Source of the DNA: Escherichia phage AV111
Sequence record: OR352941.1
Length of the DNA stretch: 64,000 nt
Strand: one strand, 5' to 3'
Shown here: in pieces, positions 36,351 through 41,526 of the stretch
Position numbering within the stretch: the stretch's first letter is position 1
Layout of the letters: every line of letters starts with the position of its first letter
The notes under the pieces: model-generated
What the model saw: only the letters and a program-made list of their open reading frames with translations
Databases searched by the model: none
Told to the model about the DNA's origin: nothing
Made by a program: the position numbers and the translations under genes

Positions 36351-36653
36351 TTAGATAGATGTAGGCTCTAATTTTATTTTCATGAACTCGGCAAATTGTC
36401 TGGCAGTTTTTATGCCTTGTTCATGACATTCAAATGCATCATCACAGGGACTATTTTTGTAATGCTTTGCCATATACTTATAGAATTTTTCAGAATTCTC
36501 GACATTTTGAATTTCAAACAAAGTATATACGTTTTTAATCCCTGATTCCATAAAGTTATCAAAATATGGGTCGATATGTGCAATACCAACGATAGGAGTT
36601 GTTGCTGCAAAAAACCCCAGCATCGCTATGACAGCTATCGCTCTTAAGGCCAT
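36351..36653 (-). CDS. secreted/periplasmic protein with signal peptide, 100 aa
   Basis: N-terminus MALRAIAVIAMLGFFAATTPIVGIAH. Confidence 0.55.
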   Translation of the reverse strand: MALRAIAVIAMLGFFAATTPIVGIAHIDPYFDNFMESGIKNVYTLFEIQNVENSEKFYKYMAKHYKNSPCDDAFECHEQGIKTARQFAEFMKIKLEPTSI

Positions 36654-36665
36654 ATAGGCCTCCTG

Positions 36666-36878
36666 TTAATTTTGGCCAGTATTTATTTTTCGCCTTTGGA
36701 CGGCCTTAACATCTGCGAGGTATTTTTCCAGCTTGCGCTTGCGTGTATAATCAGCTTTAGAACCAGTTTGACGGATATCCTCGTTTAAATGAGAAATAGA
36801 ATGTCCTAATTCTCTTCGGATTTCATCCAATTGGGTTACAGTAAGATTACGAAGTTGTCTTTCGTTTAATTGCTGCAT
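36666..36878 (-). CDS. hypothetical protein, 70 aa
   Basis: ORF track. Confidence 0.45.
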
Positions 36879-36905
36879 ATATACCTCTTGGTTAGATATT
36901 AGTAT

Positions 36906-37487
36906 TTATAACAACCCTGTCAAATCGTTCCAATGCTTCCGGCATAATGACACATATCTATCGGTATCACCAATTTCAATTTGACTGCCATCTGTAATTG
37001 GAAGTCCGTCTTCCGTGACTCTAGCTACCATTGTGGCCTTTTTACCACAATGACAGACACCTTTAAGTTCAACAAGCTTATCGGCAATAGCCATTAATGC
37101 TTGAGAACCTTCAAATAGATTACCTTTAAAATCTGTTCGTAGTCCATATGCCATTACCGGCACATTGTATACGTCAACAATACGACTAAGTTGATACACC
37201 TTTTCAGTAGTTAAGAACTGAGCTTCGTCAACAAATACGCAGTGAATATCCTTTTGTGCTGCAGCCCATTTATAGAATTCAAAGATATCCATGTCTTTTG
37301 TAATTATATTGGCGTCCTGACGAATACCAATACGAGAGACTATTTCACCTTTTGAATCGCGAGTATCAATAGCCGGTTTAAGAACTAATACACCCATGCC
37401 ACGTTCTTTATAGTTATGTGCGGCAGTAAGTAATGAAGCAGACTTACCAGCGTTCATAGCGGCATAGGTAAAAATTAAACTAGCCAT
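36906..37487 (-). CDS. tk: thymidine kinase
   Basis: 193 aa; AAMNAGKSASLL P-loop, CHCGKKATMVARV...CRKH zinc site; T4 Tk-like. Confidence 0.93.
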   Translation of the reverse strand: MASLIFTYAAMNAGKSASLLTAAHNYKERGMGVLVLKPAIDTRDSKGEIVSRIGIRQDANIITKDMDIFEFYKWAAAQKDIHCVFVDEAQFLTTEKVYQLSRIVDVYNVPVMAYGLRTDFKGNLFEGSQALMAIADKLVELKGVCHCGKKATMVARVTEDGLPITDGSQIEIGDTDRYVSLCRKHWNDLTGLL

Positions 37488-37496
37488 AAGAGTCCC

Positions 37497-37679
37497 TTAT
37501 AGTGAATTCACGTAGTCAATGAGTTCTTGTTCTTTCCTGTCAAATGATTCCAACAATGCTTGATATTCTTCGTCCGTCAAAGGAGCATATTCATCATACG
37601 CATTGGTGGCTGCTTGCTCATCCAATAGGTCATGGATAAGTTCAAACAGTTTAGTTTTCTCTTCTTTAGTCAATTTCAT
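37497..37679 (-). CDS. hypothetical protein, 60 aa
   Basis: ORF track. Confidence 0.4.
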   Translation of the reverse strand: MKLTKEEKTKLFELIHDLLDEQAATNAYDEYAPLTDEEYQALLESFDRKEQELIDYVNSL

Positions 37680-37903
37680 TTAGGTTCACCTTCTTTAACG
37701 AAATCTGGGTAAGGGTAAAATCCTGAGTAAAACCCTTCACCTTTATGATTGCTACAACCTTTGTTCGAACAGTAACACCAATAATCAAAATCACAAGCCA
37801 TTTCGTCATTGCATAAAGCAAAAACTACAGGCCATTCGCATTTTTCGCATTTAGCACCTGTAAGAATTTTTGTTTGACTCATAGCCATGTCACCTTTAAG
37901 CAA
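37676..37903 (-). CDS. cysteine-rich small protein, 75 aa
   Basis: ORF track; CEKCEW...CYCSNKGC. Confidence 0.45.
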   Translation of the reverse strand: MLKGDMAMSQTKILTGAKCEKCEWPVVFALCNDEMACDFDYWCYCSNKGCSNHKGEGFYSGFYPYPDFVKEGEPK

Positions 37904-38106
37904 TATTCTTCTACATGTTGTTTACGGCCTTTCTTATCAATAAAGGTATATTCAACGAATGTTCCGATGTAGTCTTTATCTACATCATGTGGACTATTAA
38001 TTGGACATTTAGTACGACAAATGCGTTCCCATTGACGAATAATTACTGCCTTATTCTTTGGATCATATGGATGTGGATAATGTATATTCATAATAACGGT
38101 TCCCAA
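37879..38106 (-). CDS. hypothetical protein, 75 aa
   Basis: ORF track. Confidence 0.4.
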   Translation of the reverse strand: MGTVIMNIHYPHPYDPKNKAVIIRQWERICRTKCPINSPHDVDKDYIGTFVEYTFIDKKGRKQHVEEYCLKVTWL

Positions 38107-38585
38107 TCAACAATCACAATTTCTAGTTTAGTGGAATACGTATCTAAAATCTCTTCGATGACATCCCAGTTTCCACCGCCAATACCTGCACCAATTCTTG
38201 GCATATAAATTACAGGCTTTGTTATCTTATTCTTTCCAAATTCATTTAATTCTATTATACAATTCATTAAAGCAGAGTACTCAAAATTAGGTCCCGGCTC
38301 AAACTGTGTATAAAGATTAAAGCAATAAGCTTTATGGGTCTTAAAATATTTTTCATAAACCGAATAAGTCCCGAGTTTAGACTTGTCTCCGAATTCGGTT
38401 TGAAGTTTATCGGCTTCTAAAATTTTTGGATAAGCCTTTGCTAATTGGCCTGCTACACCGGCGCCCATTGTATGAAAACAATTACACCCATGAGCAATAT
38501 TATTACCTTTAGAAAACAGGGCGACAATATCGCCCTTGATATAGTTTTTAATCACTTGCTGCAAGTCCTCTATTATAAGAGTCAA
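38088..38585 (-). CDS. macro-domain-like protein (ADP-ribose binding/processing fold), 165 aa
   Basis: GNNIAHGCNCFHTMGAGVAGQLAKAYP and IGAGIGGGNWDVI resemble macro-domain glycine-rich loops; by-eye call. Confidence 0.45.
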   Translation of the reverse strand: MTLIIEDLQQVIKNYIKGDIVALFSKGNNIAHGCNCFHTMGAGVAGQLAKAYPKILEADKLQTEFGDKSKLGTYSVYEKYFKTHKAYCFNLYTQFEPGPNFEYSALMNCIIELNEFGKNKITKPVIYMPRIGAGIGGGNWDVIEEILDTYSTKLEIVIVDWEPLL

Positions 38586-38895
38586 CTAGACGGTCCACCA
38601 TAGAATTGCATGCTGCCTTATCTTTAGGTTCCGCCACCGAGCATTCTAATATTTGCCATTTTTTATAGTATCTTTTAATTAAGGTAGACGCCTTGAACCT
38701 ACTAGACGCCCCATCTTTTTCTCCGTCTTTATACGCGTATAACAATTTTTGTGAAAAATCTACTTTACACTCTTGACTTTTACCACAATAATCAGACGCC
38801 GTTCTGTTTGTATACTCCGTTACATCAGTATATGTAGTATTAGCAAGAGCGTTAAATGAAACCAAGCTAACTATTAAAGCCAACATTTTGGTCAT
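38548..38895 (-). CDS. secreted protein with signal peptide, ~112 aa
   Basis: MLALIVSLVSFNALANT signal-like N-terminus, several Cys. Confidence 0.5.
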   Translation of the reverse strand: MTKMLALIVSLVSFNALANTTYTDVTEYTNRTASDYCGKSQECKVDFSQKLLYAYKDGEKDGASSRFKASTLIKRYYKKWQILECSVAEPKDKAACNSMVDRLVDSYNRGLAASD

Positions 38896-39434
38896 TCTTT
38901 TATTTCCAGTAGTTTATTTGATTTAAGGTAATTAGCCTTTTCTAGGACTTCAGAAGCATATTTACTTCCGGCACTTGTCTTCCATCCCGCATTATATGAG
39001 GATATAGCTTTTCTTATATCCCCGTTATGTATATTTAACCAATAAGAAAATTCGATATAAGCCCATCTGGCTGAATTAGACCGCTTAGATAGCATTTTCT
39101 TAATTTGGGCATCAGTCATATTATAACCAAGCTGGTTAATTCTTGCCCTCATTGTCGGTAGATAATTTTGGAACATTCCATACGCATGGTGACCTTTCTT
39201 ATCTTTAAGATTAATACCGGCAGATGATTCCTGCCATAGTATTGCGGCCATTATGTATCCAAGTCCTTTCTTATGCATATTTTCATGCGTTTTAAATTTT
39301 CCATCCTTAGAAAACTGTTCCCCAAACTGATAAGCATAATTCAAGTTATCGAGTTGGACATTACTAAAAGTATGCTCGGAGCTATGTGCTGATAATGAAA
39401 GAGCAAATAGACCAGCGAGTAGTGCTTTTCTCAT
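38892..39434 (-). CDS. secreted soluble lytic transglycosylase-like protein (SLT domain) with signal peptide, 180 aa
   Basis: Signal MRKALLAGLFALSLSAHS; AILWQESSAG ... GMFQ ... YNAG resemble SLT catalytic-Glu, GLMQ and YNAG motifs. Confidence 0.55.
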   Translation of the reverse strand: MRKALLAGLFALSLSAHSSEHTFSNVQLDNLNYAYQFGEQFSKDGKFKTHENMHKKGLGYIMAAILWQESSAGINLKDKKGHHAYGMFQNYLPTMRARINQLGYNMTDAQIKKMLSKRSNSARWAYIEFSYWLNIHNGDIRKAISSYNAGWKTSAGSKYASEVLEKANYLKSNKLLEIKE

Positions 39435-39442
39435 GTTTACCT

Positions 39443-39901
39443 CTAGATTTTAATCACTGCTTTAGAAGCTTTTCCTGGTAGTCGTTTACTGTTAATAATA
39501 GCCATTCTGCATTGAAGAGTCTTCATTTTGAATGCTGGATTTTCGCGACAAACTGTAAGTCCTAACCAAAGATTTCCGTCAGTTATTTCTAAACGGCCTG
39601 GGCGATATTCGACACCTTCGACAAAATCTTCATCAACATCTGGACGGGCCGGCATTGATAAAAATTCTGCAACTTCTTTAACATGATTTTTTACTTTACG
39701 AAATAATTCAAAAACGTAATTCTCATCTATTTCTCTCTGGATGGCACGATCTAAGAGATGTTGAGAATACTTGATATGAAAGCCCGGTAGTCCAAGAGAC
39801 TTTGCAGCATCTTTTATACCGGCATTTATTTTGCGGAACTCCGTTTCAAAGATTCGACGGAGTTTATTACGGCGGATAAAAACGTCTGAATTGATAGTCA
39901 T
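39443..39901 (-). CDS. regB: RegB site-specific endoribonuclease
   Basis: 152 aa; MTINSDVFIRRNKLRR...YSQHLLDRAIQREIDE...RLPGKASKAVIK matches T4 RegB. Confidence 0.93.
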   Translation of the reverse strand: MTINSDVFIRRNKLRRIFETEFRKINAGIKDAAKSLGLPGFHIKYSQHLLDRAIQREIDENYVFELFRKVKNHVKEVAEFLSMPARPDVDEDFVEGVEYRPGRLEITDGNLWLGLTVCRENPAFKMKTLQCRMAIINSKRLPGKASKAVIKI

Positions 39902-39929
39902 TTTGATTTCTCCTCTAGTTGACAGGTCT

Positions 39930-39958
39930 ATAGTAACACAACTAGAGGAGAAGTAAAC
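39930..39958 (-). promoter_or_regulatory. early promoter (-35 GTTTAC, -10 TACTAT) inside inverted repeat
   Basis: rc GTTTACTTCTCCTCTAGTTGTGTTACTAT upstream of regB. Confidence 0.55.
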
Positions 39959-39962
39959 TACT

Positions 39963-40178
39963 TTATTGATAAAATGGAGTTAAAGCCCAAGATTCTTTAG
40001 ATACCATATTGGCGAAATGCCTCATCTCTTCGATTTGGCGTCGACGCTGGTCAGCATAGTCTTCTTCGCCTTCTTCCTTACAATCTTCAAGGTCTTCTTC
40101 AAGATACTTTAAGTATTCACTACAAATTTTGTTGACCTTTTCTTGAAAGTCCAATAACCCAGTAATAGTAGAAGCCAT
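39963..40178 (-). CDS. hypothetical acidic protein, 71 aa
   Basis: ORF track. Confidence 0.45.
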   Translation of the reverse strand: MASTITGLLDFQEKVNKICSEYLKYLEEDLEDCKEEGEEDYADQRRRQIEEMRHFANMVSKESWALTPFYQ

Positions 40179-40441
40179 TAGTATTTTTCCTCAGGTCGAA
40201 ATACTGCACGACATGCCCACATGCTGGCTTCTTTTAGATGTTGCTTAGCATACTTAAGAGCCTGCACTGCATCCATATCTTCTTTGGTTTGTTGCTCTGT
40301 TTCATTTTCTTTCAAGATATATGCTTCTTCAATCAGAGCATCAAACATCAATCCAAGACGGACTTCTGCATCTTTAATAGCGTTCACTTTACCGATTTTA
40401 TCGTCGGTATGTGGCTTGTAGCCTTTGATGTCTTCAATCAT
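40178..40441 (-). CDS. hypothetical protein, 87 aa
   Basis: ORF track. Confidence 0.45.
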   Translation of the reverse strand: MIEDIKGYKPHTDDKIGKVNAIKDAEVRLGLMFDALIEEAYILKENETEQQTKEDMDAVQALKYAKQHLKEASMWACRAVFRPEEKY

Positions 40442-40671
40442 TTCACTTCCTCGCCGGTTGCGATATCATATTCTACCAAACTAAGTCCGTCGGTCCAACC
40501 CTGAACGGAGATATAAGTGCTAGGATAAACCAGTTCTTTACCGTTCCACTGACCACCGTCCCAACATTCCATAAAGTCCTGTTCGCCTTGACCGTGGAAC
40601 CAGTCAACAAACATCTTCAGAGCTTCTTCAGAACCTTCAATAGTCAATTTAGACATATTTTTTCCAGTCAC
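40438..40671 (-). CDS. hypothetical protein, 77 aa
   Basis: ORF track. Confidence 0.45.
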   Translation of the reverse strand: MTGKNMSKLTIEGSEEALKMFVDWFHGQGEQDFMECWDGGQWNGKELVYPSTYISVQGWTDGLSLVEYDIATGEEVK

Positions 40672-40945
40672 TAATTAATCGCACATCCTGGTCATATGTC
40701 AGGAGGCTACGAGTTATAATACCCTTACATGGTCCAGAAATAAATTCCAAAGTAAAGTAAGGAACCAACTTCATCAAGCGAATACTCGGAGCAGTGCAAC
40801 GAAATCTGGACCCAATAAAAGGTCCAGACAAAAACACGTACTCAAAGAAATTTGCTTTATTAAAGATTTCAAAATTCTTTACGAAATCTTCAGACCTAAC
40901 CTTTGGAATAAAATAGATTTGGTCAAAAAGCTCTTCATGAGTCAT
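40649..40945 (-). CDS. hypothetical protein, 98 aa
   Basis: ORF track. Confidence 0.45.
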   Translation of the reverse strand: MTHEELFDQIYFIPKVRSEDFVKNFEIFNKANFFEYVFLSGPFIGSRFRCTAPSIRLMKLVPYFTLEFISGPCKGIITRSLLTYDQDVRLISDWKKYV

Positions 40946-41526
40946 TATTGCATTCCAATCACAAAAAATTGAGGACGAACTGTTCCACCCGTTTTAAAAC
41001 AATGAGCATGACAGCAGTGTTGTACAGTTTTCATATGGATATCGTAAATCTTGTCCATATCAGGAGCTTTAATAGGTTCATCAATTATATACAATACGCG
41101 TGAAAGCGCAAGGCCACGGAATTTAGAACCTTCATTACCGATAAAGCTACGTAATGAATCATGGAAAAGCTGGTAACGAATATCTTCCGCGCTAAAACGA
41201 ATAAAATCATTTTTGATAGAATCGGATGAAATTCTTGCATAAGCAGAGGTATTAGACAGGACAATTACTGTACCTCCGTCATAAATCCAGTTAGCGGCAA
41301 AATTAGTTACTGCAGTAGATTTACCTGATTGTCGCCCGCCATCCATACGGAGTGTGCAGTATTCTTTGAGCAAGACTTCCATTGGAGGAATATAACAATC
41401 GGTCTTACAAAGTTCTTCTATTCGAGCATCAGAATGGTGGGTAAAAGCATTCATCAGGGATAGATAAGGTCCAGTTAAAAATGTTCTCATATTATTTCTC
41501 TTAAGGTTTGGGCCATTCCGTGGCAC
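40945..41526 (-). CDS. P-loop-containing hypothetical protein, 193 aa
   Basis: GGRQSGKST Walker-A-like motif. Confidence 0.5.
   Translation of the reverse strand: MPRNGPNLKRNNMRTFLTGPYLSLMNAFTHHSDARIEELCKTDCYIPPMEVLLKEYCTLRMDGGRQSGKSTAVTNFAANWIYDGGTVIVLSNTSAYARISSDSIKNDFIRFSAEDIRYQLFHDSLRSFIGNEGSKFRGLALSRVLYIIDEPIKAPDMDKIYDIHMKTVQHCCHAHCFKTGGTVRPQFFVIGMQ

Follow-up and report, generated by a model that had tools for sequence, protein, structure and literature searches.

A Mosigvirus orthologue of the T4 anti-DarT factor gene tk.4/adfM with a predicted glutamine-type macrodomain active site

DarTG is a common anti-phage defence, and T-even phages stack AdfA, AdfN and AdfM against it. T4 lacking both adfA and adfN retains resistance to DarTG2, from which a further factor was predicted (PMC11825919). 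When a T4 transposon library was screened on a DarTG2-carrying E. coli host, tk.4 was the single significant match; a clean knockout of tk.4 rendered T4 sensitive to DarTG2, the gene was not needed on plain E. coli K-12, and it was renamed adfM (bioRxiv 10.1101/2025.11.20.689424, November 2025). This phenotype was obtained with one DarTG2 system under special conditions, i.e. M9 glucose at 30 C. It was proposed in the same preprint that the protein removes ADP-ribose from DNA, and Tk.4 was compared solely with DarG of M. tuberculosis (10.1101/2025.11.20.689424).

The macrodomain gp104 of phage PhiKZ, also called AdfM, strips the ADP-ribose made by DarT2 from thymidine in vitro, using a TNTC oligonucleotide (PMC13309987); with this activity, the macrodomain strategy is proven in phages. 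The name AdfM was given independently to these two macrodomains (PMC13309987; bioRxiv 10.1101/2025.11.20.689424), which belong to separate clades. The bacterial macrodomain SCO6735 is an efficient hydrolase of thymidine-linked ADP-ribose on DNA and guards cells against DarT (PMC9411070). Its Q85A mutant is inactive and its N27S mutant nearly so; the proposed mechanism involves an activated water, with the Gln positioning the distal ribose, and roles for H24 and N27 have been described (PMC9411070). One review and one survey of viral ADP-ribose systems hold nothing specific on Tk.4, and a paper on CmdTAC names macrodomains in its reference list alone.

Here, we analysed a stretch of 64,000 nucleotides from Escherichia phage AV111 (OR352941.1), which we refer to as the window and in which an initial annotation had placed a macro-domain-like protein between tk and regB. 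For T4, both the proposed function and the proposed test, infection of DarTG hosts by a deletion mutant, are already in the literature. The sole new point made here is mechanistic and concerns a Gln at the catalytic-Lys position of the Tk.4 family, which seems not to have been discussed before.

The tk.4 locus

The window derives from an RB69-like Mosigvirus and is 99.7% identical over 2 kb to vB_Eco_NicPhage and 99.6% identical to Shigella phage JK36. The minus-strand open reading frame (ORF) at 38088..38585 encodes 165 aa if counted from a TTG at 38585, and this length had been taken over in the initial annotation. Several observations instead place the start 30 nt further downstream. The annotated CDS of 468 nt in JK36 corresponds to 38088-38555; the GTG at 38555 lines up base for base with the ATG of the T4 orthologue; and the N termini of homologues read MI..YIKGD, which fits a protein of 155 aa. 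Moreover, GAGGA at 38566-38570, 10 nt upstream of this GTG, is a likely Shine-Dalgarno sequence of tk.4, and the extra 30 nt of the longer ORF belong to the 3' end of vs. Together, these observations make the GTG at 38555 the most probable start. The TTG at 38585 was rejected in view of the homologue N termini, the alignment with T4 and the public annotation, and the length was corrected to 155 aa.

The 155-aa product, referred to here as Tk.4, aligns with T4 Tk.4 over 155/155 residues with zero gaps, 84% identity and 94% positives. The gene order regB, vs.1, vs, tk.4, tk.3, tk.2, tk.1, tk, rI.1, rI is identical to that in T4, with all genes on the minus strand (Table 1). Judged by its sequence and position, the window gene is the Mosigvirus orthologue of T4 tk.4 (adfM, for anti-DarT factor, macrodomain). 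In near-identical and related records, the gene is annotated as 'macro domain protein', 'Poa1p-like' or 'phosphatase'.

The vs stop codon lies at 38548-38550, and the final 8 nt of vs overlap the tk.4 start (GTGATTAA); this overlap suggests that the translation of tk.4 is coupled to that of vs. At the other end of tk.4, the TGA stop codon and the ATG of tk.3 overlap as ATGA, and tk.1, tk.2 and tk.3 are likewise packed tightly with overlapping stop and start codons. The stop/start overlaps around tk.4 represent the compact arrangement that is usual in early gene clusters of T-even phages.

Table 1. Features of the tk.4 locus in the window
Feature	Position	Strand	Evidence or remark
tk.4 / adfM CDS, single macro domain, 155 aa, GTG start, TGA stop	38088..38555	-	JK36 CDS limits, T4 alignment, Pfam
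30 nt extra in the TTG-start ORF; 3' end of vs, outside tk.4	38556..38585	-	T4 alignment, JK36 annotation
Loop 1 of the predicted ADP-ribose pocket, H22-G-C-N25-C-F-H-T-M-G-A-G-V-A-G36	38448..38492	-	60-sequence alignment, hhalign
N80-L-Y-T-Q84 motif	38304..38318	-	60-sequence alignment
Loop 2, predicted diphosphate-binding, P119-R-I-G122-A-G124-I-G-G-G-N-W130	38166..38201	-	Alignments
vs, valyl-tRNA synthetase modifier, upstream neighbour	38548..38895	-	T4 synteny
vs.1, 180-aa product	38892-39434	-	
regB	39443-39901	-	
tk.3 (DUF7202), downstream neighbour	37879..38091	-	ATG overlaps the tk.4 TGA stop
tk.1, tk.2, tk.3, small genes	37497-38091	-	Downstream of tk.4
tk	36906-37487	-	

Several further features of the cluster were noted. 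The vs product is without a Pfam match; in a preprint on T4 HIDEN-SEQ, no gene was more strongly depleted than vs when minimal medium was compared with LB. The vs.1 product has a hydrophobic N terminus, and its match to the SLT lytic transglycosylase domain stays below the threshold (18.8 bits; cut-off, 21.3). JK36 has vs.1 labelled as 'endoribonuclease RegB', apparently a slip of annotation, since regB proper is the neighbouring gene. The small genes match recently created Pfam families, i.e. DUF7438 (tk.1), 'Phage zinc binding domain' (tk.2, Cys-rich) and DUF7202 (tk.3). Upstream of the regB cluster, a 193-aa ORF at 40945-41526 on the minus strand contains the Walker-A-like stretch GGRQSGKST.

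When positions 36500-40500 were scanned for promoters and terminators, the counts were not above those for shuffled sequence. Codons 7-13 of tk.4 (38518-38536, minus strand) contain an 8-bp GC-rich hairpin, AGGGCGAT-ATT-GTCGCCCT, followed by GUUUUCU, with an energy of about -13 kcal/mol and a z-score of -2.2 relative to shuffled sequences. The hairpin stem is 100% conserved in T4; because the stem also encodes the conserved KGDIVAL, constraint at the RNA level and constraint at the protein level are inseparable. In the record of Yersinia phage fPS-2, a terminator and a promoter are listed under the match to tk.4.

Macro fold and active-site residues

The Pfam Macro profile (PF01661) matched Tk.4 over profile positions 2-117 of 118 with a score of 28.2 bits, above its gathering cut-off of 22, and PHROG 335 matched with E 1e-66. 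In searches of the PDB by phmmer with the single sequence, the macrodomains BT1257, Poa1p, SCO6735, TARG1 and DarG were recovered; beyond macrodomains, the only matches were weak ones (E above 0.2), to serine hydrolases of computational design. A family profile built from 60 diverse homologues matched BT1257 (1.9e-17), TARG1 (1.7e-15), SCO6735 (7.9e-15), M. tuberculosis DarG (2.5e-13) and Poa1p (3.9e-13) in the PDB. The AlphaFold2 model based on the 60-sequence alignment had a mean pLDDT of 95 and a pTM of 0.90. With this model, Foldseek returned TARG1, Poa1p, BT1257 and DarG as the best solved structures (probability 1.00, TM 0.7-0.8), and the 50 PDB matches listed were all macrodomains or designed serine hydrolases with the same fold. 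In total, the similarity of Tk.4 to macro domains is confirmed to be far above chance, and the model confirms a predicted three-layer alpha/beta/alpha macro fold. Relatives were detected by tblastn in 2,800 phage records.

The macro domain proposed in the initial annotation was thus borne out by Pfam Macro, by sequence searches of the PDB, and by the AlphaFold2 model with Foldseek. Each profile and fold test that was run pointed to macro and none pointed to another fold, and therefore the assignment stands. The glycine-rich loops that had been picked out by eye are both present, as HGCNCFHTMGAGVAGQ (residues 22-37) and PRIGAGIGGGNW (residues 119-130) in the 155-aa numbering, and contain the glycine-rich stretches HTMGAGVAGQ and RIGAGIGGGNW. 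The two loops follow the pattern of macro-type ADP-ribose-binding loops, with an Asn and then GxG in the first (N25-x5-G31-A-G33) and a Gly-rich, predicted diphosphate loop as the second (I121-G-A-G-I-G-G-G128).

In loop 1 of the 60-sequence alignment, G23, N25, C26, G33 and A35 were present in 60/60 sequences and H22 in 58/60; N80, Y82, T83 and Q84 were invariant (60/60), as were D49, L61, G62, P119, I121, G122, G124 and W130. In the alignments with known macrodomains, Q84 stands where TARG1 and DarG have their catalytic Lys, K84 and K80, respectively, and G126 pairs with D125 of TARG1. Thus, the catalytic residues of TARG1 and of DarG are both absent from Tk.4, and a TARG1-type Lys/Asp mechanism was ruled out by the replacement of K84 by Q84 and of D125 by G126. 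By contrast, hhalign aligned Tk.4 and SCO6735 with a probability of 98.4%, pairing H22 with H24, N25 with N27, Q84 with Q85, G122 with G126 and G124 with G128. From these alignments, we infer that the Tk.4 active site is of the Gln type found in SCO6735 and not of the Lys type of DarG and TARG1. The type of site bears on the choice of mutants and on whether inhibitors directed against DarG reach Tk.4.

Tk.4 matched the NCBIfam DarG model (NF048014) with 31 bits vs a cut-off of 250 and at model positions 4-146 of 338. Membership of the DarG family was ruled out by this sub-threshold score, the single domain and the lack of the catalytic Lys. No DarT2 homologue was found in the window by tblastn with one DarT2 query.

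Two sets of observations run counter to a Gln hydrolase of the SCO6735 type. First, K34 and K89, the lysines that position DNA in SCO6735, are not kept in Tk.4: K34 aligns with A32, K89 falls in a gap between E86 and P87, and the segment F85-P89 is without lysine. Second, the PDB sequences nearest to Tk.4 include that of Poa1p, a phosphatase of ADP-ribose-1''-phosphate (single-sequence E 1.4e-8, profile E 3.9e-13, TM 0.80), the PHROGs label for PHROG 335 is 'phosphatase', and relatives are annotated as 'O-acetyl-ADP-ribose deacetylase'. Tk.4 would then be a Poa1p-like phosphatase or deacetylase that acts on ADP-ribose-1''-phosphate or O-acetyl-ADP-ribose and clears by-products of RNA repair or of sirtuins. 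However, these names are inherited and are not tests; in the phmmer alignment, Poa1p H23 aligns with H22 of Tk.4 but a Ser of Poa1p faces the invariant Q84; and an activity of this kind leaves the loss of tk.4 mutants on DarTG2 hosts unexplained. Moreover, no source of ADP-ribose-1''-phosphate is known in T4-infected E. coli. We regard a phosphatase or deacetylase as the least probable of all the functions weighed here.

Proposed protection against DarTG2

Within this analysis, the macro fold, the orthology and the active-site residues are established. With a probability of roughly 0.8, Mosigvirus AdfM would shield replicating DNA from DarTG2 as a Gln hydrolase of the SCO6735 type; the phenotype, the enzyme activity and the chemistry are all matters that we infer. 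The stand-alone 155-aa macrodomain would be made from the regB-tk cluster early in infection. The DarT2 toxin puts ADP-ribose on thymidine in single-stranded TNTC motifs and thereby blocks replication; the phage macrodomain would bind this ADP-ribose and hydrolyse its bond to the base, giving back normal thymidine. In the predicted pocket, Q84, kept in place by N25, would position the distal ribose, a water molecule would start the reaction and the loop with G122 and G124 would grip the diphosphate.

In the initial annotation, it had been suggested that a phage macro domain could reverse ADP-ribosylation by host toxins or degrade ADP-ribose-derived signals. The first suggestion gains support from the knockout of the T4 orthologue on a DarTG2 host and would extend to the gene described here; the second found no support. 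An intact adfM in this Mosigvirus would aid host-range prediction, e.g. in the choice of therapy phages.

The catalytically dead variants SCO6735 Q85A, DarG K80A and TARG1 K84A inhibit DarT in vitro, SCO6735 most strongly (PMC9411070). The inhibition by dead SCO6735 means that catalysis need not account for all of the protection, and the evidence on T4 tk.4 is genetic alone. Tk.4 might then mainly bind DarT2 or its DNA substrate, and hydrolysis would not be needed. However, the residues that serve hydrolysis in SCO6735 are conserved across the family (N25, Q84, G122 and G124 in all 60 members, H22 in 58/60), and they are kept even in bacterial members near which one DarT2 query found no match, which argues for selection on catalysis. 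Moreover, Tk.4 is without the C-terminal DarT-binding domain of DarG, having 155 aa vs the 338 positions of the DarG model. We therefore consider a block that is mainly non-catalytic to be improbable.

The bacterial members were collected in a scan of one genome per species, which gave 363 relatives, the best 80 of which were looked at. These 80 of 363 are 35-45% identical to Tk.4 and are encoded by stand-alone ORFs of about 150 aa. Their neighbours are recurrent and housekeeping-looking as judged by eye and not by profile, and examples resemble, again by eye, N-acetyl-gamma-glutamyl-phosphate reductase, an aminoacyl-tRNA synthetase and an RNA polymerase subunit. No DarT2 was found within 3 kb of the best 80 of 363 by tblastn (best E 0.6), a search that used one DarT2 query and is of limited sensitivity. 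The stand-alone position among housekeeping-looking genes and the lack of a match to this query speak against these relatives being antitoxins paired with DarT. The same observations fit descent of Tk.4 from stand-alone enzymes of the SCO6735/BT1257 kind and not from a DarG antitoxin, but this is only a lead, because a single DarT query was used and the neighbours were judged by eye.

The setting of the bacterial relatives among housekeeping-looking genes and not in toxin-antitoxin pairs (best 80 of 363, by eye) would also fit an enzyme that removes ADP-ribose from proteins or RNA, placed there by other host defences or by the phage enzymes Alt, ModA and ModB, in which case protection against DarTG2 would be a side activity. 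Alt, ModA and ModB, however, target arginine, and macrodomains of the Tk.4 class are not known to cleave arginine-linked ADP-ribose. SCO6735 and TARG1 de-modify proteins too (PMC9411070), and according to the literature T-even phages have three ADP-ribosyltransferases; on the other side, tk.4 was not required on plain E. coli K-12 and came up as the sole match on DarTG2 (10.1101/2025.11.20.689424). As the main role of Tk.4, this is in our judgement still more improbable than a non-catalytic block, and removal of protein- or RNA-linked ADP-ribose may be an extra activity of Tk.4.

A related but unlikely scenario is that AdfM proteins of the Tk.4 type are not DarG antitoxins taken over by phages but phage copies of a widespread, stand-alone bacterial macrodomain of the Gln type, similar to SCO6735 and BT1257 and located among housekeeping genes. 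If so, the water-based chemistry could widen the range beyond that of DarG to ADP-ribose linked to Glu/Asp of proteins or to RNA bases, and tk.4 would counter multiple ADP-ribosylating defences and not DarTG2 alone.

Comparison with known macrodomains

The closest counterpart of the window protein is T4 Tk.4, with which it shares the length of 155 aa, the position between vs and tk.3 and all family-invariant residues. The T4 gene starts with ATG and the window gene with GTG, the proteins differ by 25 substitutions, including K127 of T4 Tk.4 in loop 2, which is G127 in the window protein, and the DarTG2 phenotype was measured in T4 alone and not in this Mosigvirus.

Among solved structures, BT1257 of Bacteroides (PDB 2FG1/2AFC) is the closest by sequence, at about 26% identity to Tk.4, and has both the loop-2 motif and, as NMIGQ, the N-x-x-x-Q motif. 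Human TARG1/OARD1 (PDB 4J5R) is the best structural match (E 6e-10) and is also of single-domain size, whereas its catalytic pair K84/D125 corresponds to Q84/G126 in Tk.4. Yeast Poa1p (PDB 6LFR), again of single-domain size, matched the model with E 2e-9 and TM 0.80, whereas it has Ser at the Gln position and acts as a phosphatase of ADP-ribose-1''-phosphate.

The DarG macrodomain (PDB 5M3I, 5M31, 7OMU) resembles Tk.4 in fold (TM 0.73-0.76) and in the loop-1 Asn, and its substrate, the ADP-ribose that DarT2 links to thymidine, is the one proposed for Tk.4 as well. By contrast, DarG has its catalytic lysine, K80, in FPTK where Tk.4 has Q84 in NLYTQ; moreover, DarG has a second, C-terminal DarT-binding domain and an adjacent darT, whereas Tk.4 is a single domain of 155 aa.

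Like the proposed Tk.4 enzyme, PhiKZ gp104 is a phage stand-alone macrodomain directed against DarTG2, with activity on T-ADP-ribosylated DNA in vitro (PMC13309987). It differs in being close to DarG (E 9e-25 to M. tuberculosis DarG) and in keeping the FPTK lysine, and BLASTP between gp104 and the window protein aligned 23 residues and no more. Because gp104 is DarG-like with a Lys and Tk.4 has a Gln, the two proteins called AdfM represent different macrodomain branches and would differ in their catalytic residues.

SCO6735 of Streptomyces coelicolor (PDB 5E3B) is the stand-alone macrodomain, of the TARG1/DarG (ALC1-like) class, that has the Gln, the His, the Asn and the two loop Gly of Tk.4. 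It is encoded by a bacterial chromosomal gene and not by a phage, and its identity to Tk.4 is 23%.
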